The notes under the pieces: generated by a model
The model's database searches: none
What the model saw: the letters and a program-made list of their open reading frames with translations, nothing else
What the model was told of the DNA's origin: nothing
Origin: Alphaproteobacteria bacterium
Lineage (GTDB): Bacteria; Pseudomonadota; Alphaproteobacteria; JABAAW01
DNA length: 64,000 bases
Direction: 5' to 3'
Assembly (NCBI GenBank): GCA_965216605.1
Contig: CBDCGG010000002.1
Coordinates: 519,871 to 583,870 of the forward strand
In this document: piece by piece, positions 13,386 through 35,849 of the stretch
How positions within the stretch are numbered: position 1 is the stretch's first letter
Layout: each line of letters opens with the position of its first letter
Program-made: the position numbers and the translations under genes

Positions 13386-13867
13386 CACCTCGCCCTGCGC
13401 AACCTTGCCCGCACAACCCCAACATCGCTGCTGTTGCGATGACTATGTCCATGATCATGGCCATGGCGATGGCGATGGTGATTGCGATTGTTTTCTCGCC
13501 TCCCCTAGCTTTCGGGCAAGATGTGCTCGACGACGAGGATGCTTCCTCTGCCGAGCCTTTCGCTTCCTCGCAAAGTCTGAAAGGAGGGTCGAGCGCATCG
13601 CTGATCGGCTTGAACAAACGCTCGGGACAGGCGCGTAAGCTGCGCGCTCCCGTCGGACAAAGCTTGCGCTTCGAAACGCTTACGATCAACCTGGTTTCTT
13701 GCACGCGCATCCTCTATCCGCGCTTTGAAGATTCGGCAGCCTTGCTGTCGATCTCGGAGCGGAAAGAAGGAGTCTTGTTTAAAGGCTGGATGTACGCACA
13801 ATATCCCTCGTTGAGCGCGATGGATCACCCGATTTACGATGTGTGGGTCGAACGCTGTCTGCCTTGA
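13382..13867 (+). CDS. Hypothetical secreted protein (contains an (ATGGCG)n-encoded MAMAMAM stretch)
   Basis: It has signal-peptide-like hydrophobic N-terminus and overlaps the upstream gene by 4 nt, as in an operon with the MlaD-like genes. It may be a DUF2155-type periplasmic protein; this is unverified. Confidence 0.35.
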   Translation: MTPRPAQPCPHNPNIAAVAMTMSMIMAMAMAMVIAIVFSPPLAFGQDVLDDEDASSAEPFASSQSLKGGSSASLIGLNKRSGQARKLRAPVGQSLRFETLTINLVSCTRILYPRFEDSAALLSISERKEGVLFKGWMYAQYPSLSAMDHPIYDVWVERCLP

Positions 13868-16898: not shown

Positions 16899-17726
16899 AT
16901 GTTGTATTCCTTGAAAAAGTTCATCAAACACCTTTTGCGGCGGTTCCTACAATCTTTTTTGTATGTTGCTCTTAAAATAGGATTTTTGTCTTTTCTGTTC
17001 CATTCCCGAATACTAGGAAAACTTCACGATTGGGCGCAATTGCAAGAAAACAGAAAAAACCAAAAGAACGATGATGCTTCAAGGAAACCCTTAAGCGCTC
17101 TTCTGTCTTTGTTCCGCCTGTCGGCAACAAGAGCCATTCTCCATGCAAACAAGTTTTGCATGGGGCACTACGATGCTCTCAAAAAAACTGACTTGCCCTA
17201 TTACATGGGCGGTCACGGAGGAGTGACACACTCGGATGTCGGAGCCCTCGTTTTCCTGAAAAAAGAATTCTCTATACAATCGATGATCGATATCGGTTGC
17301 GGACCAGGAGGGCAAGTCGACGCAGCACGAAAAAACGGAATCGAATCTTTTGGTGTCGACGGCGACAAGAGCCTGAAATTCAACAAACCCTGGTTCTTTA
17401 TACACGATTTCACGAAGGGACACTTTGCTTGCAAACGACACTTCGATCTTGCCTGGTCGGTCGAGTTTCTTGAGCATGTCGAAGAAAAGTATCAACCCTT
17501 CTACATGTCTCTTTTTCAGCGTGCCAAAGTTGTCGTTTGCACGGCGGCACCTCCGGGCAAACCCGGATATCACCATGTCAATTGCCGTGAAATAGCCTAT
17601 TGGATCAAGGTTTTTAAAAAATACGGATTCGCCTTCGATACAAACGGCACCGAACAACTGAAAAAACACTCAAGCATGCAACGCGAGTTTATGCACGAGA
17701 CGGGCATGCTGTTCGTCAAAGCATAG
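16899..17726 (+). CDS. Class I SAM-dependent methyltransferase (paralog 2; markedly AT-rich 5' half)
   Basis: Motifs 'IDIGCGPGGQV', 'FGVDGD' and 'WSVEFLEHVEEKYQPFYM...VVCTAAPPGKPGYHHVNC' are present. It is paralogous to 15051-15818. Confidence 0.55.
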   Translation: MLYSLKKFIKHLLRRFLQSFLYVALKIGFLSFLFHSRILGKLHDWAQLQENRKNQKNDDASRKPLSALLSLFRLSATRAILHANKFCMGHYDALKKTDLPYYMGGHGGVTHSDVGALVFLKKEFSIQSMIDIGCGPGGQVDAARKNGIESFGVDGDKSLKFNKPWFFIHDFTKGHFACKRHFDLAWSVEFLEHVEEKYQPFYMSLFQRAKVVVCTAAPPGKPGYHHVNCREIAYWIKVFKKYGFAFDTNGTEQLKKHSSMQREFMHETGMLFVKA

Positions 17727-17756
17727 CACCCGACAAACCGCGCGTTTGGACGACTC

Positions 17757-18398
17757 TTATTGTTTCTCGTCGCCCAAAGCTTGCGGAAAAAAACTGTACG
17801 AAAGCGTCACCGTATCGAAAGTGTCCCATTCCTCGTGATCGCGCAGCGCGGGGTCGAGAAAAAATACTACCTTCATCGCAACCTTTTCTTTGCCCCGCAG
17901 CGTTTGTTCGACAAAGCAAAAACACTCGATCTTGTGAAAATAGGCGCCCGCCTTAGCAGGCGTCACATTGTAGGTGGCGACCCCCGCAAGCGCATGCGAA
18001 GACAAATTCTCCGCCGTGTAGAAGGTCTCGTAGATCTCGCCAAGGGCAACCTCCATCTCGACCTGCGAGGGACCAAACCCCCAGTCTAGACCGTTCACAT
18101 TGCCATCGAAACGCACCCTTATCGTCTGCGCATCGCCTCGCTTCGTCAAGCCGAGCAGCTCCCGCAAATTGCTTCGTTGTGTCGTACCGCCGAAACCCGT
18201 CGTGCGGCAAAAAAGATCGTACAGCGGAACAGAGGCGAAACTCAATCCCAGCATGAGGCTGCCGAAAAAAAAGATCCTCAACGCAAGACGACGGTTGCGA
18301 ACACTCAATTCTTCCCCTCTCCCTCTCCCCCTTCCTTTCTCTTTCCGCTCACCTCTCACCACTTGCTTGGTTGCTTGCTTGTTGAATGTTCTCGTCAT
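17757..18398 (-). CDS. ctaG: Cytochrome c oxidase assembly protein CtaG/Cox11
   Basis: It has an N-terminal TM helix and the Cox11 copper-binding motif 'CFCF' in 'HKIECFCFVEQTL'. Confidence 0.85.
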   Translation of the reverse strand: MTRTFNKQATKQVVRGERKEKGRGRGRGEELSVRNRRLALRIFFFGSLMLGLSFASVPLYDLFCRTTGFGGTTQRSNLRELLGLTKRGDAQTIRVRFDGNVNGLDWGFGPSQVEMEVALGEIYETFYTAENLSSHALAGVATYNVTPAKAGAYFHKIECFCFVEQTLRGKEKVAMKVVFFLDPALRDHEEWDTFDTVTLSYSFFPQALGDEKQ

Positions 18399-22236: not shown

Positions 22237-23907
22237 CTAGGGTTTGCATAACATGAGTCCATAGAAGGGTTTTAGTTTCTCTGCTTTTTCAGGACATTGG
22301 GAGAGGGTAGGCAAGCGCACGCCACTCAAACCGCTGTCGTAATAATTGAAAAAGATCGGTATCGCCCAGTCTACTAGGCTCGTATCAGGCACGACAAACC
22401 ACCCCCCATGCTTCTCCGCCTGTCGCACATCGTATGAGCGCAAGAATGCATACTTGCCATCCTTTCTCATCCTTTGGACGGAGATATAAAGCAGGCAGGC
22501 AACAACAATAAACACGACGATTCTTTGAACGCGCGAAAAAGGAGGTTGCTTCTCGTCGGGCGCGAGCAGGAAAACAAGAAAGAGCACAGGTAGCCACCAG
22601 TTCTGCGGCGCATGGCGAAAAGAAAAACCCACATTGAACGAAAGTATCGAGACGGCGACCCCTGCCAAGACGAGCAACCCTCCTCGGTGTCGCACAAAAA
22701 ACACCAGTGTCAAACACAGAAGCAAGGCGCCGCTAAACAAAGAAGAAAAACCATGCAGAAACGATTGCAAGTTCAGAGAAGAAAACGGCGGTAAAGGAAC
22801 GGGAGTCCAATTGGAAGTTTCTGCCGTTTTTGAAAACAGCGCAATCCACCATTTCTCGTACTGCGACTTTCCTGAAAAGACGGGGCTTGATTCCTCCAAA
22901 AAAACTATCTCTTGTTTCTCTTCGCCGAACACGATAGCGGGATAAAAAGGATGGACAGGGTTTCCATGCAGGTAAGCGTTTGTCGAGTAAGGGAAGAAGC
23001 CGAATAAGACGACCCCCAAAATCGTAGCCGCACTCCCCAGCCCCGCCAGTTGCAAAAGCGTCTTTCGGCTTGCGCCTCGCCGTGCGCCGTAGGCAAGAGC
23101 CGTCATCCCCAAAACACCCCCAAAAACAAGCCCTGTGAACTTGATGTTGACAAGCAGCACGAGAAGACACGCGACATAAACAGCTGTCCTTAGTCGTATC
23201 GTTCGGCTTTGTGCTTTGCCCTCCGAGACAAAACAAAGCATGAGCAAGAAAGCGCTCAGCAGCGTCGAGACAAGCAAGCCGTCGTTGAGGTGGGAGAAAA
23301 AACACATGGCAACAATGGGGTTTGCCGCAAGCAGAGCAGCCAAAACATTGCGCCAAGAACGAGACAAGCGCGGCAGGGTTTCGAAGAAACGTCTTGCGCA
23401 CAGAAACGCTGCCAGAGCGGATAGAACCGAAAAGGCAAAGCTCGCCTCGAATGTTTGCGTCCATACAATCAGCGAGGCAGAAAGCAGCCAGTGCGCTGCG
23501 GGGTAAACATGAGTGACCCAACTGCTGGGTTGCCAGTAAGGATTGACATCCTCCAACAAATCAAGAATTGCTTGAGCATGGTAGCCGCGAGAATCCCATT
23601 CTCTGTCCAAGGTGAAACTCAAAGCCCATGCCGCGAGCGCAAAGACTGCCAAAAGCAGCAACAAGGTTGCAGCCAATCTCTGCCATTTTTCTTCTCGATG
23701 CAGTGCGACGACCGCTCCTCCCCACAGCAACAGCCCTGTCGGAAAGACCCAACGACCCCTCTCTATATCGATGCCTATATCGGCAAGCAGAGCAAATGCC
23801 GCCGTCATGTACAGAACGGGCAGAAACAACACCGCTGCTGTCAGCAACAGCTCTTCCACGAAAAAACTCCGTATTTTTCTGACCTGCTCGGCTTTCAGTT
23901 TTTTCAT
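22237..23907 (-). CDS. Paralog 1 of a 5-member tandem family of ~560-aa polytopic membrane proteins (putative GT-C-type glycosyl/arabinosyltransferase; function inferred from context only)
   Basis: It has about 13-14 predicted TM helices and a C-terminal soluble domain ending 'GGWFVVPD...NYYDSGLSGVRLPTLSQCPEKAEK'. Its start codon overlaps the stop of paralog 2 (TCAT). Family motifs are 'SFFVEELLL..VLFLP.LYMTAAFALL.DIGID.ERGRWVFPTGLLLWG', 'HWLLSASL.VWT' and 'NIKFTGLVFGG.LG.TALAYGARRGASRKT'. Confidence 0.75.
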   Translation of the reverse strand: MKKLKAEQVRKIRSFFVEELLLTAAVLFLPVLYMTAAFALLADIGIDIERGRWVFPTGLLLWGGAVVALHREEKWQRLAATLLLLLAVFALAAWALSFTLDREWDSRGYHAQAILDLLEDVNPYWQPSSWVTHVYPAAHWLLSASLIVWTQTFEASFAFSVLSALAAFLCARRFFETLPRLSRSWRNVLAALLAANPIVAMCFFSHLNDGLLVSTLLSAFLLMLCFVSEGKAQSRTIRLRTAVYVACLLVLLVNIKFTGLVFGGVLGMTALAYGARRGASRKTLLQLAGLGSAATILGVVLFGFFPYSTNAYLHGNPVHPFYPAIVFGEEKQEIVFLEESSPVFSGKSQYEKWWIALFSKTAETSNWTPVPLPPFSSLNLQSFLHGFSSLFSGALLLCLTLVFFVRHRGGLLVLAGVAVSILSFNVGFSFRHAPQNWWLPVLFLVFLLAPDEKQPPFSRVQRIVVFIVVACLLYISVQRMRKDGKYAFLRSYDVRQAEKHGGWFVVPDTSLVDWAIPIFFNYYDSGLSGVRLPTLSQCPEKAEKLKPFYGLMLCKP

Positions 23908-25586
23908 TGAGGTTTGCACAATGTCAGTCCACTGTAGAGTTCGCGCTTCGGAGCATTGTACGGACATTGGGACATCGTAGGCAAGCGCACGCCGCTCAAA
24001 CCGCTATCGTAGTAATTGAAAAAGATCGGTATATGCCAATCTACCAGCATATTTGTGTCGGGAACGACAAACCACCCTCCCTCTTGTTCCGCTTGTTGCA
24101 CAACCTGTGCAAGCCATAGTGCCTCCCTGTGACGGAACCTCAGCCTTTGGACGGAGAGATAAAGCAGGCAGGCAACAACAACGAACACCACGATTCTTTG
24201 GGCTCTTTGTGCGCGCAAAAAAGAAGATTGCTTCTCGTCGGGCGCGAGCAGAAAGACAAGCAAGAGCACAGGCAACCACCAGTTCTGCGGCGTGAGGCGA
24301 AACGCGAAGCTCACACGCGTCGAGATAACGGATACCATAACCCCTGCCAAGACGAACCACGCTCCTCGGTGTCGCACAAAAAACACCAGCGTCAGACACA
24401 GAAGTAGCGAGCCGCTAAACAAAGTGCCGAAGCCGCCATAAAAAGCCTCGTATTGACGCAAAGAAAACGGCGGCAAAGGAGCAGGAGTCCAATAATCTTT
24501 CCCTCTTTCCGAGAACAGCGAAATCCACCATTTCTCGTACGAAGACTTGGCGTAGAATTCTTTGTCAAAAAGCCTGCCGACGATGTCCTTTGTTTTATCT
24601 TTCTCGGCAAAGGAGATCGCAGGGTAGAAGGGGTTTTTATGCAGCGCCATGTTCGTCGCGTAAGGGAAGAAGCCAAATAGGGCGACCCCCAAGATCGCCG
24701 CACCGCTGCCAAGCCCCGCAAGATGTACAAGCGTCTTTCTACTTGCTCCGCGTCGCGCGCCGTAAGCCAGTGCCGTCAGCCCCAGTATGCCGCCGTAGAC
24801 GAGCCCCGTGAACTTGATGTTGACGAGGAAGATTAATAAAGACGCAATACAAAAGGCGGCTCGAAAGCGTATCGTTCGACTTTGTGCTTTACCCTCAGAG
24901 ACAAAGCACAACATGAGCATGGATACACTCAATAACGTCGAGACAAGCAAGCCATCGTTATAGTGGACGAAGAAACACCATGTTGCGACGGGGTTGGCAG
25001 CGAGCAGGAATGCCAAAACATTGCGCCAAACACCAGACAAGTGCGATAGGGTTGGCGTTGCCAAAAAACGCCTTGCGCACAGAAACGCCGCCACGACAGC
25101 AACGCCTGTCAAGGCAAAGCTTGCCTCGAAACTTTGCGTCCATACAATCAGCGAGGCAGAAAGTAGCCAATGCGCTGTGGGATAAGTGTAGGTGATCCAG
25201 CTTCTAGGCTCCCAGTAGGGATTGACTCCCTCCAACAAGCCAAGAATTGCAAGAGCATGGTAGAAGCGTGAGTCTTGTCCCCTATCCAAATAAAGACTCG
25301 TCGCCCACGCCGTGAGCGCGAATACCGCCAAGAACAACAGCAGCGTTGCCACCAACTTCTGCCACTTTTCTTCTCGATGCAGTGCCACGATCGCTATGCC
25401 CCACAGCAACAGCCCTGTCGGAAAGACCCAACGACCCCTCTCCATATCGATGCCTATATCGGCAAGCAGAGCAAATGCCGCCGTCATGTACAAGATCGGC
25501 AGAAACAACACCGCTGCTGTCAGCAACAGCTCTTCCACGAAAAAACTCCGTATTCTTCTGACCTGCTCGACCTTCAGTTTTTTCAT
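23904..25586 (-). CDS. Paralog 2 of the tandem polytopic membrane-protein family
   Basis: It has the same architecture. Its N-terminal ~60 aa are nearly identical to paralog 1 ('MKKLK.EQVRRIRSFFVEELLLTAAVLFLP'). Its stop overlaps the paralog 1 start, and its start overlaps the paralog 3 stop. Confidence 0.75.
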   Translation of the reverse strand: MKKLKVEQVRRIRSFFVEELLLTAAVLFLPILYMTAAFALLADIGIDMERGRWVFPTGLLLWGIAIVALHREEKWQKLVATLLLFLAVFALTAWATSLYLDRGQDSRFYHALAILGLLEGVNPYWEPRSWITYTYPTAHWLLSASLIVWTQSFEASFALTGVAVVAAFLCARRFLATPTLSHLSGVWRNVLAFLLAANPVATWCFFVHYNDGLLVSTLLSVSMLMLCFVSEGKAQSRTIRFRAAFCIASLLIFLVNIKFTGLVYGGILGLTALAYGARRGASRKTLVHLAGLGSGAAILGVALFGFFPYATNMALHKNPFYPAISFAEKDKTKDIVGRLFDKEFYAKSSYEKWWISLFSERGKDYWTPAPLPPFSLRQYEAFYGGFGTLFSGSLLLCLTLVFFVRHRGAWFVLAGVMVSVISTRVSFAFRLTPQNWWLPVLLLVFLLAPDEKQSSFLRAQRAQRIVVFVVVACLLYLSVQRLRFRHREALWLAQVVQQAEQEGGWFVVPDTNMLVDWHIPIFFNYYDSGLSGVRLPTMSQCPYNAPKRELYSGLTLCKPQ

Positions 25587-27292
25587 TGAGGTTTGCACAA
25601 TGCCAGCCCATCGAGGGGTCTCATTTTCTCTGCTTTGTCTGGGCATTGAAGCATCGTGGGCAAGCGCACGCCGCTCAAACCGCTGTTGTAGTAACGGAAA
25701 AAGGCTTCTGTGTGGTGTTTCATCTGCAGATCGGGCACGACAAACCACCCTCCTTGCCGCTCCGCCTGTCGCACAACTTGCGACAAGGCGACTGCCAGAT
25801 TGCCATGATACATCAGCCTTGCGACGGAGATATAAAGCATGCAGGCAACAACGACAAACACGATAGCTCTTTGCGCACGCGACAAAGAGCGCGACAAAGG
25901 AGATGACTTCTCGTCAGGCGCGAGCAGAAAGACGAGAAAGAGCATCGGCAGCCACCAGTTCTGTGGCGCGTGGCGAGAAGAAAGACCCACCCCGAACGAA
26001 AGAATCGAGACGCCAACCCCTGCCAAAACAAGCAACCCTCCTCGATGACGCACAAAAAACACCAGCGTCAGACACAGAAGTAGCGAGCCGCTAAACAAAG
26101 AGCCGAACCCGTCCAAAAAAGATATAGGGCTCAGCGAAGAAAACGGCGGCAAAGGAGCAGGAACTCTCCAATCTCCTTGCGTTTGTGAAAACAGCCCAAT
26201 CCACCATTCCTCGTATTGCAACCTTTCTAAAAAAACGGGGTTTGCTTCCTCCAAAAAAGCTATCTCTTGTTTCCCTTCGCCGAACACGATAGCAGGATAA
26301 AAAGGATGGACAGGGTTTCCATGCAGGTAAGCGTTCGTCGAGTAAGGGAAGAAGCCGAACAGAGCGACCCCCAAGAGAGCCGCACCACTGCCCAGTCCTG
26401 CAAGGCGGACAAGCGTCTTTCGGCTTGCGCCGCGCCTGACCCCGTAAGCCAGCGCCGTCAGTCCCAAAGCACCCCCGAAGACGAGCCCCGTGAACTTGAT
26501 ATTGATGAGAAATACAAGAAGACACACGATACAAAAGGCTGTCCGTCGCAAGCGTCGTTTGTTTTCCCTTTGAGAGCCTTCTTCGCAGACAAAGCAGAGC
26601 ATCAGCATAAAAACGCTCAAAAGCACGGATACCAAAAAGCCGTCGTTGTAGTTCATAAAAAAACAAGAGAACGCGATGGGGTTGCCAGCAAGTAACGCGG
26701 CGAGAAGATTGCGCTTCGAACGAGATGAAGCACGAGACAAGTGTGGCAGCGTTGCCAAGAAACGCCTTGCGCACAGAAACGCCGCCACGACAGCAATGAC
26801 GGTGAAGACAACGCTAGTCGTAAGGAGTTGTGTCCACACAACAAGCGAGGCAGAAAGCAGCCAGTGCGCTGTGGGATAAGTGTAGGTGATCCAGCTTCTA
26901 GGCTCCCAGTAGGGATTTCTTCCCTCCAACAAGCCAAGGATTGCACGAGCATGGTAGTGGCGAGAATCCCATTCAATATCCGCGAGGAAACTCGCCGCCC
27001 ACACCGCGAGCGCGAATATTGCCAAAACCAGCAATAGGGTTGCGAGCCGTCTCTGCCATTTTTCCTCTCGATGCAGTGCCGCGACCGCTATACCCCACAG
27101 CAGTAGCCCTGTCGGAAAAACCCAACGACCCCTCTCCATATCGATGCCGATGTCCGCAAGCAGAGCAAACGCCGCCGTCATGTACACAATGGGCAGAAAC
27201 AACACCGCCGCTGTCAGCAACAGCTCTTCCACGAAAAAACTCCGTATTCTTCTGACCTGCTCGGCTTTCAGTTTTTTTACTAGGGTTTGCAC
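25583..27292 (-). CDS. Paralog 3 of the tandem polytopic membrane-protein family
   Basis: It has the same architecture. The canonical ATG of paralogs 1 and 2 is replaced by GTA (Val), so a GTG 4 codons upstream is used as the start. Confidence 0.7.
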   Translation of the reverse strand: MQTLVKKLKAEQVRRIRSFFVEELLLTAAVLFLPIVYMTAAFALLADIGIDMERGRWVFPTGLLLWGIAVAALHREEKWQRRLATLLLVLAIFALAVWAASFLADIEWDSRHYHARAILGLLEGRNPYWEPRSWITYTYPTAHWLLSASLVVWTQLLTTSVVFTVIAVVAAFLCARRFLATLPHLSRASSRSKRNLLAALLAGNPIAFSCFFMNYNDGFLVSVLLSVFMLMLCFVCEEGSQRENKRRLRRTAFCIVCLLVFLINIKFTGLVFGGALGLTALAYGVRRGASRKTLVRLAGLGSGAALLGVALFGFFPYSTNAYLHGNPVHPFYPAIVFGEGKQEIAFLEEANPVFLERLQYEEWWIGLFSQTQGDWRVPAPLPPFSSLSPISFLDGFGSLFSGSLLLCLTLVFFVRHRGGLLVLAGVGVSILSFGVGLSSRHAPQNWWLPMLFLVFLLAPDEKSSPLSRSLSRAQRAIVFVVVACMLYISVARLMYHGNLAVALSQVVRQAERQGGWFVVPDLQMKHHTEAFFRYYNSGLSGVRLPTMLQCPDKAEKMRPLDGLALCKPQ

Positions 27293-28956
27293 AATGCCAG
27301 CCCATGGATGGGTATCATTTTCTCTGCCTTTTCAGGGCATTGGGAGAGGGTAGGCAAGCGCACGCCACTAAAGCCGCTGTCGTAGTAACGGAAAAAGGCT
27401 AAAGCCTTCCGTTTCATCAGCAGATCGGGGACAAGGAACCATCCTCCCTGCTGTTCCGCTTGTTTCACAACCCGCATTGTCTTGATTGCTGCCACGCCAT
27501 AAAAATTTGCGCTTTGGAAAGAGTCGTAGCACAAGCAAGCGACAACAGCGAACACCGCGATTCTTTGGGCTCTTTGCGCGCGCGACAAAAGATTTTTCTT
27601 CTCGTCGGGCGCGAGCAAGAAAACAAGAAAAAGTATAGGCATCCACCAGTTTTGCGGCGTGAGGCGGAAATGGAAACTGGCAGATGTCGAGAGAATGGAT
27701 ACCATGATACCTGCCAAAACGAACCACGCTCCTCTGTGTCGCACAAAAAACACCAAGCTCATACACAGAAGCCACGAGCCACCAAAAAGAGGTCCTAGGC
27801 TTGAGATGAAGGATGTGGGACGCAAAGAAGAAAAAGGCGGTAGAGGAGCGAGACGCCACTCGCCGTTCACCGGTTTGGAGAACAGCGAAAGCCACCATTT
27901 CTCGTAATGCGACCTTTTATAAAATTCTGGGGACACAAGGGGACGGGTTATGTCGCTTGTTTTCTTTCCCTTGTCAAAGAAGATTGCGGGGTAGAAGGGA
28001 TTTTTATGTAGCGCAGTGTTCGTCGCGTAAGGGTAGAAGCCGAATAGGGCGACCCCCAAAATAGCAGCCGCACTCCCCAACCCCGCCAGTCGCAAGAGCG
28101 TTGCGCGGCTTGCGCCACGCCGTGCGCCGTAAGCCAGCGCTGTCAGCCCTAAGATGCCGCCGAAGACGAGCCCCGTGAACTTGATATTGACGAGCAACAC
28201 GAGAAGACACACGATATAAACGGCGGCTCGAAGCTGTGTCGTTCGACTTTGCCTCTTGCCTTCCGAGACAAAGCAAAGCATGAGCAAGAAAACACTCAAC
28301 AGCGTCGAGACAAAAAAGCCATCGACACTGTGGACGAAGTAGCACCATATTGCGATGGGGTTGGCAGCGAGCAGGAACGCCAAAACATGACGCCAGAAAC
28401 GGGACAAGTGCTGTAGCGTTGCCAAATAACGCCTTGCGCACAGGAAGGCTGTCAGAACGGACAGAGCCGTGAAAGCAAAGCTCGCGGTGAAAAGTTTTGT
28501 CCATACAATCAGCGAGGAAGAAAGCAGCCAGTGAGCAGCGGGGTAGGTGTAGTAGACATAACGCGTGCCCCAAGTGTTGGGATGACGATAGGGATTTCCT
28601 CCATCCAACAACGCCAAAATAGATTGTGCATGGTAGGTGCGACCATCCCACCCTCTGTCCAAAAAGAAACTCGTAGCCCACGCCGCGAGCGCAAAGCCTG
28701 CCAATAACAGCAACAGCGTTGCCGCTTGTTTGTGCCACCTTTCCTCTCGATGCAGTGCCGCGACCGCAACTCCCCACAGCAGCAACCCCGTAGGAAAAAC
28801 CCAACGACCCCTCTCCATATCGATGCCTATGTCGGAAAGCAGAGCAAATGCCGCCGTCATGTACAAGACAGGCAGAAACAACACCGATGCCGAAAGCAAC
28901 AGCTCTTCCGAGAAAAAACGCCTTGCTCTTCCGATGGAAGCACCTATGGCTTGCAT
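27280..28956 (-). CDS. Paralog 4 of the tandem polytopic membrane-protein family
   Basis: It has the same architecture. A ~230-nt stretch of its 5' end (about 28680-28915) is near-identical to paralog 5 (about 30355-30595). It overlaps both neighbours by 13 nt. Confidence 0.75.
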   Translation of the reverse strand: MQAIGASIGRARRFFSEELLLSASVLFLPVLYMTAAFALLSDIGIDMERGRWVFPTGLLLWGVAVAALHREERWHKQAATLLLLLAGFALAAWATSFFLDRGWDGRTYHAQSILALLDGGNPYRHPNTWGTRYVYYTYPAAHWLLSSSLIVWTKLFTASFAFTALSVLTAFLCARRYLATLQHLSRFWRHVLAFLLAANPIAIWCYFVHSVDGFFVSTLLSVFLLMLCFVSEGKRQSRTTQLRAAVYIVCLLVLLVNIKFTGLVFGGILGLTALAYGARRGASRATLLRLAGLGSAAAILGVALFGFYPYATNTALHKNPFYPAIFFDKGKKTSDITRPLVSPEFYKRSHYEKWWLSLFSKPVNGEWRLAPLPPFSSLRPTSFISSLGPLFGGSWLLCMSLVFFVRHRGAWFVLAGIMVSILSTSASFHFRLTPQNWWMPILFLVFLLAPDEKKNLLSRAQRAQRIAVFAVVACLCYDSFQSANFYGVAAIKTMRVVKQAEQQGGWFLVPDLLMKRKALAFFRYYDSGFSGVRLPTLSQCPEKAEKMIPIHGLALCKP

Positions 28957-30701
28957 AGCACCAACCCATAGACGAGTCTGCGTGTCTCTGCTTTTTCAGG
29001 ACATTGGGGCATAGTAGGCAAGCGCACGCCACTCAAGCCGCTGTCGTAGTAATCGAAAAAGATTTGACTTTCGCTATTTTTAATCTGCGGATCAGGAACA
29101 ATGAACCACCCTCCCTGCCGCTCCACCTTTCGCACAACCCGCGCCGTCTCGATCGATGCCCCACCATAAAATTTGACGCTTTGGATTGAGGCATATAACA
29201 AGCAGGCGACAACGACTAAGATCACGATTCTTTGGGCTCTTTGCGCGCGCGACAAAAGGTTTTTCTTCTCGTCGGGCGCGAGCAGAAAGACGAGAAATAG
29301 CACAGGCAACCACCAGTTCTGCGGCGCGTGGCGAAAAGAAAAACCCACCTCGAACAAAAATATTGAGGCGGCAACCCCTGCCAAAACGAGCCAAGCTCCT
29401 CGGTGTCGCACAAAAAACACCAAGGTCAGACATAAAAGCAAGGCGCCGCTAAACAAAGAGCCGAACCCATAAAGAAAATCTCCGGGTCTAAGTGAAGAAA
29501 AAGGCGGCAAAGGAACGGGATCCCAACCACTTGCTGACCCACTTTTGGAAAACAATGAAATCCACCATTTTTCGTACTGCGATCTTCCTGAAAAGACAGG
29601 GCTTGAATCCTCCCAAAAAACTATCTCTTGTTTCTCTTCGCCGTACACGATAGCAGGATAGAAAGGATGGACAGGGTTGCCATGCAGGTAGGCGTTCGTC
29701 GCGTACGGGTAGAAGCCAAACAGCGCGACCCCCAAGATCGTAGCCGCACTGCCCAGCCCTGCAAGTTGTACAAGCGTCTTTCGACTTGCGCCGCGTCGTG
29801 CGCCGTAAGCAAGCGCTGTCAGCCCTAAGATGCCGCCGAAGACGAGCCCCGTGAACTTGATATTGATGAGAAACACGAGAAGACACGCGATACAAAAGGC
29901 GGCTCTAAGCCGTGTTGTTCGACTTTGCCTCTTGCCTTCCGAGACAAAGCACAACATGAGCAAGAAGACACTCAGTAGCGTGGATACAAGCAAACCATCG
30001 GTATGGTTGGTAAAGAAGCACCATGTTGCGATGGGGTTGGCAGCGAGCAGGAACGCCAAAACATTACGCCAGAAACGAGACAAGTGCTGTAGCGTTGCCA
30101 AATAACGCCTTGCGCAGAAAAACGCCGACAGAGTGGCTACGACCGTAAAGACAAAGCTTACCTCAAACATGTGCGTCCATACGATCAACGAGGCAGAAAG
30201 CAACCAGTGAGCCACAGGGTAGGTCAAAATGACCCACAACTTGAGCCAACTGTTAGGGTGCCGGTAGGGATTGACTCCCTCCAACAAGTCAAGGATTGCC
30301 TGAGAATGGTAGTCGCGAGAATCGTAGTTGTTGTCCAAAAGGAAACTCGTAGCCCACGCCGCGAGCGCAAAGCCTGCCAATAACAGCAACAGCGTTGCCG
30401 CTTGTTTGTGCCACCTTTCCTCTCGATGCAGTGCCACGACCGCAACTCCCCACAGCAGCAACCCCGTAGGAAAAACCCAACGACCCCTCTCCATATCGAT
30501 GCCTATGTCGGAAAGCAGAGCAAATGCCGCCGTCATGTACAAGACAGGCAGAAACAACACCGATGCCGAAAGCAACAGCTCTTCCGAGAAAAATCGCTCG
30601 CCACAAGACGACACGCTCCCTTCCCACGCCTTGACACGGCGTTGTAAAGACGACGAAAGGCGACAGCACGCATCGGCGATTGTTGGCAAAAGATGTTTCA
30701 T
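28944..30701 (-). CDS. Paralog 5 (first in transcription order) of the tandem polytopic membrane-protein family
   Basis: It has the same architecture and a longer N-terminal extension. It starts 48 nt from tRNA-Ser on the opposite strand. Confidence 0.75.
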   Translation of the reverse strand: MKHLLPTIADACCRLSSSLQRRVKAWEGSVSSCGERFFSEELLLSASVLFLPVLYMTAAFALLSDIGIDMERGRWVFPTGLLLWGVAVVALHREERWHKQAATLLLLLAGFALAAWATSFLLDNNYDSRDYHSQAILDLLEGVNPYRHPNSWLKLWVILTYPVAHWLLSASLIVWTHMFEVSFVFTVVATLSAFFCARRYLATLQHLSRFWRNVLAFLLAANPIATWCFFTNHTDGLLVSTLLSVFLLMLCFVSEGKRQSRTTRLRAAFCIACLLVFLINIKFTGLVFGGILGLTALAYGARRGASRKTLVQLAGLGSAATILGVALFGFYPYATNAYLHGNPVHPFYPAIVYGEEKQEIVFWEDSSPVFSGRSQYEKWWISLFSKSGSASGWDPVPLPPFSSLRPGDFLYGFGSLFSGALLLCLTLVFFVRHRGAWLVLAGVAASIFLFEVGFSFRHAPQNWWLPVLFLVFLLAPDEKKNLLSRAQRAQRIVILVVVACLLYASIQSVKFYGGASIETARVVRKVERQGGWFIVPDPQIKNSESQIFFDYYDSGLSGVRLPTMPQCPEKAETRRLVYGLVLCKP

Positions 30702-30749
30702 CGCTCGTCTATGCTAGGGTGGCGTGTGGCTGAAAGGCGAGGGGCTTGC

Positions 30750-30836
30750 GGAGAGGTGCCGGAGCGGTCGAACGGGACGGTCTCGAAAACCGTTGTGCGC
30801 GCAAGCGCACCGAGGGTTCGAATCCCTCCCTCTCCG
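30750..30836 (+). tRNA. tRNA-Ser (CGA anticodon), class II with long variable arm
   Basis: The fold fits manually: acceptor GGAGAGG/CCTCTCC, anticodon stem ACGGT/ACCGT with loop CTCGAAA (CGA anticodon), a variable-arm hairpin GTGCGCGCAAGCGCAC, and T-arm GAGGG-TTCGAAT-CCCTC. Confidence 0.8.
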
Positions 30837-30898
30837 TATCAACTCTCGCCTCAACCCTAGCACAAGAACCAGAGAAGCAAGAATCAGAGAGATAAGCG

Positions 30899-31684
30899 TC
30901 AAAGAGGCAAACGTTTGAAAATTTTCTCTGGAATATTGCGGATGATCGCCATGATCCCGACCCACAGCCACGGCACATAGAGCTGCTCGCGCTTTCGCTC
31001 GATGGCGCGCAAGATAACACGAGCGACATGCTCAGGACTGCTCCACAAAGCACCCTTGCGGAACGAGGCGGTCATCTTCGTAGCCACGAATCCTGGCTTG
31101 ATCGTCTGAATACACAAAGGCGAGCCTGCGCGCGCCAAACGATGACGCAACCCCTGCAAAAAGAGCGCGACCGCACCCTTGCCCGATCCATAGATATAGT
31201 TTGACGCGCGACCGCGATCGCCCGCGACCGAACCAAAAACAGAGATCACACCCCCCCTCTTCTCCATGCGTGCGCTCGCAGCATGAGCCAGCGAGGCAAC
31301 GCTGAGAAAGTTCGTCTCCCAGGCGATGCGCGCCTGTTCAAAGTTTTTCTCGGCGATTTTTTGGTTCGGCAAAACTCCTTGCGCAAGCACAACAACCCCC
31401 AATCCTCCCAAGGCTTTGTGCGCGTGAGCGAGCAAACCGTCGTGCGAGGCGAAGTTGCGCGCCTCGAAACCTTCGATCGCTACAAAACTAGCACCGCGCA
31501 GCGTCAAGTCCTTGGCAAGCCTTGCTAGTCCCTTCTTGTCGCGCGAAAAAAGGCAGAGGCGCGCGCCGCGCACAGCCCACAGGCGCGCCATCGCGCGTGC
31601 TATGTCGGCGTTCGCCCCGAAGATCGCTATATGTTCAGGGCTTTGGTGGTCGGATTTATGGCGCTTAAGATTCTTCGTTGTCAT
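30899..31684 (-). CDS. dprE2: Decaprenylphospho-2'-keto-ribose reductase DprE2-like short-chain dehydrogenase
   Basis: The 261-aa SDR has a Rossmann 'IAIFGANADIARAMA', the catalytic 'YGSGKGAV', and a C-terminus 'IMAIIRNIPEKIFKRLPL' that closely matches Mtb Rv3791 'VMMVLRHIPRSIFRKLPI'. An AAGGAG RBS is present. The track ORF (668 aa) is Arg-rich read-through of another frame; the true start is the internal Met at 31684. Confidence 0.85.
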   Translation of the reverse strand: MTTKNLKRHKSDHQSPEHIAIFGANADIARAMARLWAVRGARLCLFSRDKKGLARLAKDLTLRGASFVAIEGFEARNFASHDGLLAHAHKALGGLGVVVLAQGVLPNQKIAEKNFEQARIAWETNFLSVASLAHAASARMEKRGGVISVFGSVAGDRGRASNYIYGSGKGAVALFLQGLRHRLARAGSPLCIQTIKPGFVATKMTASFRKGALWSSPEHVARVILRAIERKREQLYVPWLWVGIMAIIRNIPEKIFKRLPL

Positions 31685-31719: not shown

Positions 31720-33036
31720 TTAAAGCCCGAGTCGCTGCGATTGCCGCGAGGCAAAAAGGGTGTCCGCTTCGACCTTGCGCCGTACGGCACAAAACTCTTT
31801 CCAGCGAGGATAGCCTTTGCGAAAGTTCTTTTTCGAGAGGCGTGCGTCTTTCGTCAGATAGACGCGCCCTCCGACAGCATGCACGAGCGCGTCCAAATTT
31901 TCCAGCAGCTCGAAGACGCGCGCGTTGTTTTGAAAGTCGAGCGCGAGCGTATATCCCTCCTGAGGAAAGGACAGAGGCGACAGCGCGATACCGCGCCCCA
32001 TCGTCTTCAACACGGCGAGAAAAGACCCTTGTCGAGACGCGACGACACGTTGCAAAATCTCTTCGAGCACATAGCACCCGTCTTTTTTTGGCACGACGCA
32101 CTGGTATTGCAAAAACCCGCGCTTGCCGTAAAGACGGTTCCAGTGTCGAATGCCGTCGAGCGGATAGAAGAACTTGTCGTATGCAACGATTCGCTCGATG
32201 GGCTTTGGGGCGCGACACCCGTAGTATAAGGCGTTGAAGGCGCGCACGGAGAGGGGGTTGAGCAGGAAGGAGGGAGCGTTGCAGGGAACAGAGACCAGTC
32301 CTTTTTCTTCGATGCGCCATCCCGCGCGCTCGGCGTGTTCGGCGAGGAAGAGAACACCGCGTCCCATATTTTTGCCTCGTGCGAGACAATCGAGCCACGC
32401 AACCGAGTAGGTTGTCTCGGCATGGTGTTCCAACAACTCGACGAGTTCCTGAAGGTTGCGCGCGCGTTGGCTTGTCTCCAGCATGTATGCGCTCGGCACG
32501 CGCTTCATGCGTAAGGTGAGGTCGATAACAACCCCGACAAGTCCCATCCCGCCGCAGACGGCGTGAAACAGCTCGGCATTCTTGCGCCGCGAGCAGGATA
32601 CGATCGTACCATCCGCGATCATCACGCGCATGTCTTGTATGTGATGAGCAAAGCTTCCTTCTTTGTGATGGTTTTTGCCGTGCACATCGCTGGCGACAGC
32701 TCCTCCCAGCGTCACATGCCTTGTGCCGGGCGAGACGGGCACCGCCCACCCTACAGGCAGGAAGACGCGCAACAGATCGTCGAGCGCAACGCCCGCCAGA
32801 CATCGAAGGTATCCTGTGCGCTCGTCGAAGGCGCTGAGCGTGTCGAAGGCGCGCATGTCGAGGCTGACGGGCGCGAGCGCACAATCGCCGTAGCCGCGTC
32901 CGCAACCCCGTGCGATCAAACGCTCACCGCGTGCACGCGCAGAGCGCAAAACCTCTCGCAAACCTTCCTCCGATGCGGGCGAGACAACCCGTGCCTCCAT
33001 CGAGGGATATCGCCCCCAACCTGCTATGCTCGTCAT
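31720..33036 (-). CDS. dprE1: Decaprenylphosphoryl-ribose 2'-oxidase DprE1-like FAD-dependent oxidoreductase
   Basis: Motifs 'GWGRYP', 'RGCGRGYGD' and 'SPGTRHVTLGGAVASDVHGKNHH' match the DprE1 signatures ('GWGR', 'RGLGRSYGD', '[23 protein letters not shown]'). It is 438 aa. An AAGGAG RBS precedes downstream dprE2 and the two are co-oriented. Confidence 0.9.
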   Translation of the reverse strand: MTSIAGWGRYPSMEARVVSPASEEGLREVLRSARARGERLIARGCGRGYGDCALAPVSLDMRAFDTLSAFDERTGYLRCLAGVALDDLLRVFLPVGWAVPVSPGTRHVTLGGAVASDVHGKNHHKEGSFAHHIQDMRVMIADGTIVSCSRRKNAELFHAVCGGMGLVGVVIDLTLRMKRVPSAYMLETSQRARNLQELVELLEHHAETTYSVAWLDCLARGKNMGRGVLFLAEHAERAGWRIEEKGLVSVPCNAPSFLLNPLSVRAFNALYYGCRAPKPIERIVAYDKFFYPLDGIRHWNRLYGKRGFLQYQCVVPKKDGCYVLEEILQRVVASRQGSFLAVLKTMGRGIALSPLSFPQEGYTLALDFQNNARVFELLENLDALVHAVGGRVYLTKDARLSKKNFRKGYPRWKEFCAVRRKVEADTLFASRQSQRLGL

Positions 33037-33053
33037 AACTTCCTCGCCATCTT

Positions 33054-33155
33054 GGGGATAAATTCCCCTTGGGGATAGATTCCCCTTGGGGATAAATTCC
33101 CCTTGGGGATAAATTCCCCTTGGGGATAGATTCCCCTTGGGGATAAGTTCTCTTT
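33054..33155. repeat. Six tandem copies of a 17-bp unit TTGGGGATA(A/G)ATTCCCC in the dprE1 / UbiA-like divergent intergenic region
   Basis: GGGGATA recurs at 33054, 33071, 33088, 33105, 33122 and 33139 with an exact 17-bp period. Each unit contains the palindrome CCCCTTGGGG and the hairpin GGGGATAAATTCCCC. Confidence 0.85.
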
Positions 33156-33226: not shown

Positions 33227-34144
33227 GTGGAGGATGGAGAAAACGCGATGCCAACAACTTTAAAACCGCTGCAAGACAAAAAGACGCGATCCTTATCGCT
33301 CTCTGTGCTTGCGCTGTTGCGCCCTTTGGAATGGAGCAAAGGCGTTTTTGTACTTTTTCCTGCCTTGTTTTATGATATCTCGCTCGTTGTGTGGAAGCCT
33401 GCCTTGTGGGGAGCGGTGCTTGCAAGCTTTGTGCTGTTTTGCCTTGCTGCCTCCGGCGTCTATGTCTTCAACGATCTGTTGGATATTGAACAAGATCGCA
33501 AGCATCCGATCAAGAAACATACGCGACCTCTCGCTTCAGGAGAGATCTCGAAGTCTTGGGCGTGGGGCATTTTTGTTGCGCTGTCGTCTGCCTGCTTTCT
33601 GTTGTCGGCAGCATTTGTGCCTGCGGTGTTTCCCTTTCTTCTCATCTATTGGCTTTTGATGCTTGCGTACAGCGCGAAGTTGAAGCATTGGGCGATCATC
33701 GATCTTTTTGTAATCGCGTTCGGCTTCTGCCTTCGCGTCGAGGCGGGTGCGGCGGCACTCGACGCTCCTGTTTCGCTGTGGATGCTGGCGACGACCTTGT
33801 GTCTTGCGTTGTTCCTTGCTGCCTCCAAGCGAAGGCAAGAGACACTTGCCAACAAGGCGCGCGCGCGGCGGGTGTTGAGCGTCTATTCCGTTCCTTTGAT
33901 CGAACGTTATATGATGATCGCGGCGGTTTGCACGCTGATGTTTTACAGCTTTTTTGCAACCGACATTCGTCCGAAGCTGGGTTATACGATTCCCTTCGTG
34001 CTGTTCGGCTTCTTCCGCTACTTGCTGCTGATCGAGCGTAGCTCTGACAAGGATTCTCCTACTGATCTGTTGTTTTCGGACAAATCTCTTTTGGCGTGCG
34101 TCGTCGTATGGGCGATGTTGTCGATGGTGTTGTTGTGGCACTAG
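33227..34144 (+). CDS. UbiA-family decaprenyl-phosphate 5-phosphoribosyltransferase (Rv3806c/DPPR synthase-like)
   Basis: The 305-aa protein has 'FCLAASGVYVFNDLLDIEQDRKHPIKKHTRPLASG', paralleling Rv3806c 'FSLAASAVYLVNDVRDVEADREHPTKRFRPIAAG'. Further similarity occurs at 'LKHWAIIDLFVI' and 'SKRRQETL'. It is divergent from dprE1-dprE2. Confidence 0.85.
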   Translation: MEDGENAMPTTLKPLQDKKTRSLSLSVLALLRPLEWSKGVFVLFPALFYDISLVVWKPALWGAVLASFVLFCLAASGVYVFNDLLDIEQDRKHPIKKHTRPLASGEISKSWAWGIFVALSSACFLLSAAFVPAVFPFLLIYWLLMLAYSAKLKHWAIIDLFVIAFGFCLRVEAGAAALDAPVSLWMLATTLCLALFLAASKRRQETLANKARARRVLSVYSVPLIERYMMIAAVCTLMFYSFFATDIRPKLGYTIPFVLFGFFRYLLLIERSSDKDSPTDLLFSDKSLLACVVVWAMLSMVLLWH

Positions 34145-34785
34145 AGGAGGGCTGTGAAGCTGTCGCTGCAGAAGTTGCCGAAGAAGTTGCTGTAGCTTTG
34201 GACGAGATTAAAGGCGGCAGGATGATCGTCGTCTCCGACGATGCGCACAGGGAGAACGAGGGCGACTTGATTATGGCAGCGCAATACGCGACCGAGCAAC
34301 AACTCGCCTTTTTCGTGCGTTACACCAGCGGCATCGTCGCCGTGGCGATCTCTGCTGCGCGAGCCGCCTTGTTGCGCTGTCCGCCGATGGTACCTCTCAA
34401 CGAGGCGCCCTTAGCGACAGCCTTCACCGTCTCGCTCGACGGGCGCGAGGGACTGACGACAGGCATTTCTGCCGAAGAGCGTGCAAGAACGATTCGCACG
34501 CTCGCCTGCCCTAGTGCGAAGGCGGAAGATTTCGTCCGCCCAGGGCATGTCTTCCCTCTCATTGCGAAGGAGGGGGGCGTGATCGAGCGCGCGGGACACA
34601 CCGAAGCGGCTTACGACTTGGCGCGACTGGCGGGGGCAGAGCCCGTGGGCGTGCTTGCCGAGATCGTCTGCGACGACGGCAGCGTCGCCAAGGGGCAGGT
34701 GTTGGTAGACTTTGCCCTTGCGCATGGGTTAAAAAAACTTTCGATCGAAAATCTCATTCGCTGGCGGAGGCTCAATCAACGATGA
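34096..34785 (+). CDS. ribB: 3,4-dihydroxy-2-butanone-4-phosphate synthase RibB
   Basis: Motifs '[21 protein letters not shown]', 'RPGHVFPL' and '[14 protein letters not shown]' match RibB. The start is uncertain: the track ORF overlaps the upstream gene by 49 nt, and the true start is probably 34108 or later. Confidence 0.8.
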
Positions 34786-35849
34786 CGCACCCCTTAAAAT
34801 TTCTCATCCTCGCTACAACCCTTCTGTTCCTCTCATCGCCATTTCTAAACGCTAAAGCCAAATCCAAATCCGCACCCCTCAAAATCGTCTCAACCGCAGC
34901 CCCTATACACGCGCTGCTCGTACATCTGACGCACGGCGCACAAAAGCCGCATCTGCTCCTGCCGCCAACCATCATGCCGCACGGCGCAAGACTCACGCCG
35001 TCGCAAGCACGCATTCTGCACAACGCCAACCTGCTCGTGCTTATCGGAGAATCCTTCGCCGCGCTCGAAAGCAACATCAAGCCAAGCGCAACCCGCCACA
35101 TCGTCCGCCTCACAAAGCTGAAAGGAATCACAATCCTGCCCATCGTACCAAAACATGACGAAGAAGAGCATGGTGAAGAGGAGCACGAAGCAGAGGAGCA
35201 TGGAGAAGAGGAGCATGGAGAAGAGGAGCACGGAGCAGAGGAGCACGGAGCAGAGGAGCACGGAGCAGAGGAGCACGAGGCAGAAGAACATGAAGCAGGA
35301 GAGCATCTTCATGAGGGCAGCGTCGATCCGCATGTGTGGCTCGATGTGGAGAACGCTCGTGTGATCGTCAAGCGTCTTGCCGAGATTTTGGCAAAACGCG
35401 ACCCCTCCAACGCCGCGCTGTATCGCAAGAACGCACGCTTGCAAGAGCTCTCTCTGCGTGCGCTCGATCAAGAGGTGCGCGCGCTCGTGCGCGGGATTTC
35501 GACAAGTTCTGTTGCGGCAAAATTTCTCGTGCTTCACGATTCCACCGCCTACTTTACAGCGCGCTATGGCATTCGCGGCAAAGAGCGTCTCTACGCTGCG
35601 CGTCACAACGCCACGCGCGATGGTCTGCGACATACTTTGAATGTGCGCAAAAAGCTGCGTAGCGGAGACTATCGTTGTGTCATCGTGCAACCACAACTGC
35701 CGCGCGAGGTGCGTACACGGCTTTTAGGCTCTGATACGCGGGTTGTTGTCATCGATCCCTTGGGGGCAAAGTTGCCGCAGGACAAGAATTTTTACGCTAG
35801 CTTGTTGATGTCTGTTGCCGAGGGCTTCCGGGAATGCCTTGCTGGCTAG
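34782..35849 (+). CDS. znuA: Zinc ABC transporter substrate-binding protein ZnuA with an unusually long acidic/His-rich loop
   Basis: It has a signal peptide and the cluster A-I SBP fold. The loop 'HDEEEHGEEEHEAEEHGEEEHGEEEHGAEEHGAEEHGAEEHEAEEHEAGEH' is encoded by tandem 18-nt repeats. znuC and znuB follow. Confidence 0.8.
   Translation: MTHPLKFLILATTLLFLSSPFLNAKAKSKSAPLKIVSTAAPIHALLVHLTHGAQKPHLLLPPTIMPHGARLTPSQARILHNANLLVLIGESFAALESNIKPSATRHIVRLTKLKGITILPIVPKHDEEEHGEEEHEAEEHGEEEHGEEEHGAEEHGAEEHGAEEHEAEEHEAGEHLHEGSVDPHVWLDVENARVIVKRLAEILAKRDPSNAALYRKNARLQELSLRALDQEVRALVRGISTSSVAAKFLVLHDSTAYFTARYGIRGKERLYAARHNATRDGLRHTLNVRKKLRSGDYRCVIVQPQLPREVRTRLLGSDTRVVVIDPLGAKLPQDKNFYASLLMSVAEGFRECLAG

Follow-up and report, generated by a model that had tools for sequence, protein, structure and literature searches.

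In mycobacteria, the tandem genes embC, embA, and embB encode paralogous GT-C arabinosyltransferases of approximately 1100 amino acids (aa), while the pilE/pilS system of Neisseria provides cassette-based antigenic variation from silent cassettes and a single expression site. For bacterial paralogs, a survey of interlocus gene conversion and concerted evolution is available (PMC6053082), and long-read evidence for gene conversion has been obtained in Mycobacterium tuberculosis (PMC12046097); for the plant gene HMA4, a model of mosaic divergence has been put forward, in which interlocus gene conversion is combined with selection keeping parts of the genes distinct (bioRxiv 10.1101/2025.10.29.685298); and in Pseudomonas aeruginosa, TfpW occurs together with homologues of DprE1, DprE2, and UbiA (bioRxiv 10.1101/2020.04.19.049825). 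Here, we analyze a stretch of 64,000 nucleotides (nt) of an alphaproteobacterial genome (contig CBDCGG010000002.1, positions 519,871–583,870; below, the window), the minus strand of which carries at positions 22237–30701 an array of five head-to-tail paralogs, P1–P5, with a unit of about 1.68 kb. The array is clearly a mosaic formed by recombination between the repeated genes; the process is well known, the fast-changing array itself previously undescribed.

The five paralogs are pairwise 70–78% identical at the nucleotide level and 65–74% identical at the protein level, with 77% nucleotide identity for P4–P5 over the whole gene. At the 5' end, however, P4 and P5 share a tract of 262 nt with only 2 mismatches (99.2% identity; offset 1676 nt; coordinates of all features are given in Table 1), whereas the other nine pairs show 82.1–86.6% identity in the same columns. 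Even with a mismatch rate of 0.12, the binomial probability of at most 2 mismatches in 262 nt is 2e-12. Inside the tract, 43/44 four-fold degenerate sites are identical between P4 and P5, against a fraction of 0.70 in the rest of this gene pair, and hence protein-level selection does not explain the tract; in the same codons, the four-fold identity of P4 or P5 to the other three copies is 0.74–0.78. A preliminary description of this DNA had reported here a block of about 230 nt with 1–2 mismatches in otherwise diverged genes; both parts of this claim hold, the block being slightly longer than described (the originally reported range, 28680–28915, matches 30356–30591 at 235/236 positions).

The pairwise homoplasy index (PHI) test for the five paralogs yields 0.395, whereas permutation gives a mean of 0.487 (z = −15.3, p ≤ 5e-4). 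In a GENECONV-style test on polymorphic sites, the longest run of identity exceeds all 5000 permutations for P4–P5, P2–P3, and P1–P5. Among the 246 biallelic informative sites, each of the ten possible 2|3 splits has support, and the splits are spatially clustered: 45|123 dominates at the 5' end; 24|135 at two loop regions; and 13|245 at approximately columns 630–900; near the 3' end, splits uniting 12, 34, and 45 are all present. Segment neighbor-joining trees with bootstrap, constructed for 30 copies from five genomes, conflict with each other. The tree of the 5' segment contains the clades (P5,P4) and (P3,P2,P1), both with bootstrap 100, while other segments yield (P3,P2) with 97, (P3,P1) with 95, (P2,P1) with 94, and P4 together with copies B1/C1/D3 of related arrays with 97; in the whole-gene tree, P4 pairs with P5 at 98%. 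The patchwork of segments suggested in the preliminary description is thus confirmed by incompatible split clusters, the PHI test, and trees conflicting at 94–100% bootstrap.

The divergence profile along the genes is non-uniform. Averaged over the ten pairs, the proportion of synonymous differences (pS) is 0.16–0.25 in residues 16–69, as opposed to 0.40–0.60 in most other windows of the alignment. The 5' block also encodes the most conserved protein segment, with the proportion of nonsynonymous differences (pN) of 0.03–0.07 and conservation of 0.90 across the 30 copies. Residues 251–310 serve as an internal control: here the protein is equally conserved (pN 0.07), yet pS is normal, at about 0.5, and therefore protein-level selection fails to explain the 5' block.

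Comparison with other genomes reveals homogenization of the 5' end in four related arrays, A–D (Table 1). In the first ~55 codons, the fraction of four-fold differences is 0.18–0.23 within each of four genomes, 0.29–0.30 between the window and A, and 0.53 between clades; beyond ~55 codons, the within-genome and between-clade values mostly converge. Such a pattern is what concerted evolution classically produces; it is restricted to the 5' end, except that in the B/D clade it is seen at the extreme 3' end as well. Near-identical tracts of 107–451 nt between otherwise 73–89% identical paralogs are seen in all five arrays; one of these, between A1 and A2 (160 nt, 2 mismatches), occupies the same 5' position as the P4/P5 tract. 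The central claim of the preliminary description, that the tandem paralogs undergo gene conversion and evolve in concert, is borne out by synonymous identity, the PHI test with clustered splits, conflicting trees, and the contrast of within-genome and between-clade differences.

The paralogs themselves are old. The flank genes of the window are 88–94% identical to those of A and 82–87% identical to those of B, C, and D, whereas no window paralog exceeds 76% identity to any sequence elsewhere; with 71–76% identity to the closest relative, the array is the fastest-changing part of a conserved neighborhood. The flank pS is 0.16–0.25 to A and 0.36–0.40 to B, while among the window paralogs pS is 0.4–0.6; hence, the paralogs predate these genome splits. 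For several segments of the window copies, the nearest match is a copy from another genome and not one of the other window paralogs. The close-range family is tiny, with 66 matches among 5.8 billion sequences.

Two linked classes of periplasmic loops are present in the window and in arrays B, C, and D. Class I is characterized by the NPVHP insertion and the motif FRHAPQNWW; class II, by the lack of the insertion and the motif FRLTPQNWW; copy A2 of the nearest relative is a class I/II hybrid. In the window, the order of classes from P5 to P1 is I-II-I-II-I, in line with the repeat search, where spacings of 3355 and 3361 nt indicate a period of two units. In loop segments, P4 groups with P2, A1, and B1/C1/D3, and P5 groups with P1 and P3. 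The windowed pN/pS ratio peaks at 0.6–0.9, remaining below 1 in every window, and the variable loops fall into two old cross-genome classes; hence, the earlier suggestion that recombination diversifies acceptor-facing regions is not supported as far as diversification is concerned. Recombination rather appears to shuffle two old loop classes, with no fresh diversification. Positive selection on the variable loops, at peak ratios of 0.6–0.9, was rejected as a demonstrated fact.

Older exchanges are seen in the other copies. The 96-nt 5' stretches of P1, P2, and P3 match pairwise, in the best register, at 91/96, 88/96, and 86/96 positions. The longer 5' tracts of these copies are 93–96% identical (the P2–P3 tract comprises 198 nt with 14 mismatches; for the other two pairs, see Table 1). 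Accordingly, of the near-identical 5' block claimed for P1–P3, the shared block stands and the near-identity does not, the identity being about 90–96%. The start-region motif cagttttttcattgaggtttgcacaatg, described as identical in all three genes, is exact only at 23896 (the P2/P1 junction) and 25575 (the P3/P2 junction), that is, for P1 and P2; at 27269 (the P4/P3 junction), it has 4 mismatches, and for P3 the claim fails. In contrast, the reported mutation of the P3 start codon is correct: P3 has GTA at the position of the ATG used by P1 and P2. The reading frame is kept open by an in-frame GTG at 27292, 12 nt upstream of the GTA, which gives an open reading frame (ORF) of 569 codons; this GTG is present in P1 and P2 as well. 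All five window ORFs are intact. At the P3/P2 and P2/P1 junctions the genes overlap by ATGA, and at P5/P4 and P4/P3 by 13 nt; with these overlaps of 4 to 13 nt, P5–P1 look like one translationally coupled string. A scan of the array for promoters and terminators yielded promoter-like matches at the level of the shuffled expectation and terminator-like matches reflecting T-rich coding sequence.

Among relatives, there are between 1 and about 11 copies. In most flank windows, strains B and C are 99.6–100% identical, but their arrays consist of 9 and 5 copies, respectively. Copy C3 retains 100% identity with B2/B3 for ~84 nt, after which it follows B4; an unequal crossover by one unit within the 5' block would produce just such a switch; for the three-copy difference at the array end, the breakpoint is at the extreme 3' end of the last gene. 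The damaged copies of array D, the largest array, indicate birth-and-death turnover; these are the frameshifted first copy (L006, 1690–3307), a 108-nt C-terminal remnant (13568–13675), and a copy with an internal deletion of ~195 codons (17177–18212).

Gene conversion combined with unequal crossing-over among old tandem paralogs very probably explains the array. In the proposed mechanism, misaligned copies would pair at the 5' block, e.g., between sister chromosomes; the exchange would be resolved either without a crossover, leaving a conversion tract, or with a crossover, in which case units would be gained or lost; and each conversion would renew the identity, enabling the next exchange. The most recent event would be the copying of ~262 nt, encoding transmembrane helices (TM) 1–3, between P4 and P5, in either direction, while older exchanges would have left the 90–96% identical tracts, making each gene a patchwork. 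The first ~55–100 codons would be converted most often, preserving matches of at least 23 nt as the homology for exchange and copy-number change. For each pair of window copies, the 5' block contains one or more perfect matches of at least 23 nt, which is approximately the minimum length for RecA-dependent recombination. The periplasmic loops would escape homogenization as two old classes, presumably through selection for functionally distinct copies. Both the RecA-type mechanism and the selection on loops are what we infer from these patterns. Short-tract conversion is the simplest account of the P4/P5 tract. A single unequal crossover as its sole cause was rejected: it needs an upstream copy with the P5 body, yet P5 is the first copy of the array.

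Several points weigh against this account. Homology between P4 and P5 begins right at the 5' edge of their shared tract, so that an internal breakpoint is seen only at the 3' edge. Four-fold divergence at residues 55–94 is low even between clades (0.26), and some synonymous constraint may add to the apparent homogeneity there. The P4/P5 tract is known here from assembled sequence alone, and an assembly or polishing error is formally possible. Finally, strains B and C differ by patches of 0.5–1 kb at 80–90% identity in copies 1, 3, and 5, inside otherwise identical genes, and a search for donors of these patches in all five arrays gave none above 87% (best, 84–87%); hence, import from unsampled strains, or from lost copies, probably also contributes. 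Whether such allelic import, rather than within-array exchange, accounts for much of the patchwork outside the 5' block is a further matter: we consider this possible but doubtful. The B/C patches, set in nearly identical flanks, and the window segments nearer to copies of other genomes than to window paralogs argue for it. On the other hand, both partners of the P4/P5 tract and of the 107–451-nt tracts lie within the same array, the 5'-end contrast of within-genome and between-clade differences requires homogenization within a genome, and the donors may have vanished with deleted copies.

The remaining alternatives to gene conversion and crossing-over concern the 5' identity. An assembly or read-polishing artefact, caused by reads mis-mapped between paralogs, is very unlikely. 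Repeats of ~1.7 kb in tandem are prone to errors, and no other public metagenome assembly with the junction came to light, an exact search with 46 nt of the junction and a scan of JGI metagenomes for a protein pattern both having given no match; but collapse removes copies and cannot make an internal 262-nt tract in two full-length in-frame genes one unit apart, polishing would need ~40 coherent position changes, all five ORFs are intact, and comparable tracts are seen in four other arrays from other assemblies (three of these being separate contigs of one metagenome assembly), in one case at the same position. It is extremely improbable that, with no exchange, the identity stems from purifying selection, whether this acted on the protein or on a junction element at the RNA or DNA level. 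Such selection agrees with the 5' block encoding the most conserved protein segment and with the low between-clade divergence at residues 55–94; however, in the codons of the P4/P5 tract, the four-fold identity of P4 and P5 to the other three copies is much lower than that between the two; nucleotide constraint would span clades, whereas at residues 1–54 the four-fold differences between clades far exceed those within genomes; residues 251–310 are equally conserved with normal pS; and selection cannot yield conflicting, well-supported segment trees. P4 and P5 might also be very recent duplicates, in which everything outside the 5' block then diverged extremely fast. They are adjacent and pair in the whole-gene tree, but the rest of P4–P5 has 30% four-fold differences, being as old as any other pair, and the two copies belong to different loop classes, both of which are represented in other genomes, and the gene bodies of P4 and P5 therefore predate the species splits; the chance of this explanation being correct is close to nil.

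Table 1. Copies of the array, shared tracts, upstream neighbors, and related arrays (window coordinates unless another sequence is named).
Feature	Position	Strand	Details
P5	28944..30701	−	first array copy; 585 codons from first ATG, true start uncertain; loop class I (ORF, translation, class alignment)
P4	27280..28956	−	558 aa; ATG overlaps P5 end by 13 nt; loop class II
P3	25583..27292	−	intact 569-codon ORF from GTG; loop class I
P2	23904..25586	−	560 aa; ATG overlaps P3 stop codon (ATGA); loop class II
P1	22237..23907	−	last copy, 556 aa; ATG overlaps P2 stop codon (ATGA); loop class I
Recent conversion tract, P4 copy	28656..28917	−	codons 14–100, encodes TM1–TM3
Recent conversion tract, P5 copy	30332..30593	−	262 nt, 2 mismatches to P4 copy
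Older homogenized 5' block, P1	23720..23907	−	vs P2 25399–25586: 188 nt, 8 mismatches; vs P3 27105–27274: 170 nt, 10 mismatches
Older homogenized 5' block, P2	25372..25586	−	tract comparison
Older homogenized 5' block, P3	27066..27274	−	tract comparison
P2/P3 tract, P3 side	26844..26957	−	114 nt, 7 mismatches; partner 25150–25263; run of 29 identical polymorphic sites, p = 0.0002
P1/P3 tract in class-I loop, P3 side	26246..26359	−	114 nt, 4 mismatches; partner 22891–23004
P5/P1 related stretch	P5 29559–29690 vs P1 22843–22974	−	132 nt, 10 mismatches
Short 3' P4/P5 tract, P4 side	27558..27617	−	60 nt, 1 mismatch; partner 29225–29284
tRNA-Ser(CGA)	30749..30837	+	antisense, upstream array edge, between DprE2-like gene and P5
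DprE2-like short-chain dehydrogenase	30899..31684	−	upstream of array
DprE1-like FAD oxidase	31720..33036	−	upstream of array
UbiA-family polyprenyl-phosphate phosphoribosyltransferase-like	33227..34144	+	divergently transcribed
Array A	OZ244186.1		alphaproteobacterial metagenome-assembled genome; 3 copies
Array B	ctg28055		9 copies
Array C	ctg28090		5 copies
Array D	ctg28101		8 intact copies; one frameshifted, one remnant, one internally deleted copy

The gene neighborhood of the array is largely conserved. The tRNA-Ser(CGA) gene is 100% identical in all five genomes and, according to ARAGORN, immediately precedes the first copy at all four related loci that were scanned; hence, the array starts at a fixed tRNA boundary. 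The DprE2-like gene is directly upstream in the called genes of B, C, and D, while for A this placement follows from the position of tRNA-Ser and nucleotide matches to the window flank genes. The NCBIfam scores of the DprE1-, DprE2-, and UbiA-like proteins are 410, 151, and 185 versus curated cutoffs of 500, 250, and 234, respectively; these are the best or near-best families, all below the cutoff. Judging by gene order, the constant partner of the family appears to be the phosphoribosyltransferase and not the epimerase pair. The array is followed by coxB, coxA, and ctaB, with coxB after the array in 4/4 related arrays, and these respiratory genes may be co-transcribed with the variable array. 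The distance from the P1 stop codon to the listed coxB ORF (first start codon TTG, 22203) is 33 nt, although the true coxB start may lie further downstream.

At several loci, the surroundings differ in detail. In a more distant lineage (L009, 5050–11869), three copies of 598–622 aa adjoin a UbiA-like gene, with no DprE1 or DprE2 gene between; at another locus (L010, 8750–11839; GCA_014238315.1), there appears to be one copy, although the contig ends soon after. Between the DprE1-like and UbiA-like genes of the window (33051–33150), there is a 17-nt tandem repeat CTTGGGGATAAATTCCC, present in 5.9 copies, with a partly palindromic unit; it is absent from every related locus and may be a length-variable regulatory element. 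A ZnuA-like zinc-binding protein with a long His/Glu-rich repeat (EEHGEEEH...) is encoded at 34782–35849 (plus strand); here, its gene and the UbiA-like gene share a strand, whereas in B, C, and D the two are on opposite strands and separated by a DHBP synthase gene.

Profile searches place the encoded proteins outside curated families. The sole match of the window copies is DUF2142, at 20–21 bits versus a cutoff of 30.1, with none for P1 (four window copies were scanned); at E < 0.01, DUF2142 is matched by 13/52 relatives. The NCBIfam scan of the window copies gave no match, and the family profile had no match among PDB sequences at E ≤ 10. The same profile collects 2811 cluster representatives in 1.84 billion proteins, and Pfam and NCBIfam scans of sampled distant relatives reveal no curated family. 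The AlphaFold model is fair (predicted local distance difference test score, 81; predicted template modeling score, 0.87). GT-C glycosyltransferases account for all of the 14 PDB structures that match it best, among them the arabinosyltransferases AftA, EmbB, and AftD, although the scores are weak.

Predictions give 13–14 TM helices, and in the topology derived from them, 13 TM helices connect a cytoplasmic N-terminus to an extracytoplasmic C-terminal domain, with the positive-inside rule satisfied at 6/6 cytoplasmic loops. Among 52 relatives, D100 and D104 are nearly invariant and D212 is invariant, their periplasmic placement coming only from the positive-inside rule. With such a topology, the periplasm would contain the conserved acidic residues, the two class-defining loops, residues 323–388 (the most variable), and the Cys-containing C-terminal domain, and the variable parts (approximately 323–388, 424–434, and 477–530) are predicted to lie in periplasmic loops and the C-terminal domain. 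The preliminary description had a conserved membrane anchor joined to divergent periplasmic and C-terminal parts; this agrees with the derived topology, and depends on it, the homogenized block encoding TM1–TM3. The accompanying labels, "donor-binding core" and "acceptor-facing", are not supported as worded; they are plausible readings of a weak GT-C fold match and the gene neighborhood. Our best guess, from the fold, topology, and DprE1/DprE2/UbiA-like neighbors, is a polyprenyl-phospho-pentofuranose transferase; the use of a polyprenyl-phosphate-linked donor is suggested only by the adjacent DprE1-, DprE2-, and UbiA-like genes.

The locus is an unusually clean example of its kind, with a fresh tract, older tracts, a homogenized 5' end, and cross-species loop classes all in one place. 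In practical terms, orthology-based annotation and short-read assembly of the array will be unreliable. If the proteins are pentofuranosyl transferases, these little-known alphaproteobacteria with small genomes probably vary their envelope glycan at the strain level. A more far-reaching interpretation, which we consider improbable, is that the array is a selected shuffling device for surface-glycan variation, with the 5' block and the conserved 3' end acting as recombination handles that reassort, duplicate, and delete periplasmic specificity loops of the two old classes and their variants. If so, close strains would quickly gain different pentofuranose glycans, e.g., under phage or host pressure, and antigenic variation would operate on enzymes, not antigens, by reassorting loops of co-expressed GT-C-like transferases.

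Compared with known systems, the array is closest to bacterial concerted evolution (PMC6053082, PMC12046097), with which it shares paralogs that are closer within than between genomes, short non-reciprocal tracts, and duplication and deletion in the same repeats; here, however, homogenization is confined to approximately the first tenth of the gene, the rest being as divergent as the species split, and the family is uncharacterized, with the copy number as variable as described above. As in the HMA4 model (bioRxiv 10.1101/2025.10.29.685298), homogenized and divergent segments alternate along the genes of a tandem array, but HMA4 is a plant system of three recent copies, while here we see a bacterial string of old paralogs with overlapping reading frames. 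With TfpW, the likeness would lie in the pairing, within a Gram-negative bacterium, of a D-arabinofuranose donor pathway with a multi-pass membrane arabinosyltransferase; TfpW is a single gene linked to pilin, whereas here there is an array and no pilin gene nearby. Like embC-embA-embB, the array consists of adjacent multi-pass membrane paralogs, each with a C-terminal domain predicted here to be periplasmic, beside putative genes for a polyprenyl-phospho-pentose donor (DprE1-, DprE2-, and UbiA-like); unlike embC-embA-embB, it has an alphaproteobacterial host, a highly variable copy number, and proteins of ~560 aa with no detectable sequence similarity, known from genes alone. Finally, pilE/pilS of Neisseria resembles the array in that variable segments lie between conserved ones and gene conversion transfers segments; here, however, the copies are full-length and apparently co-expressed, with no silent cassettes or single expression site, and the products are putative enzymes, not surface antigens.

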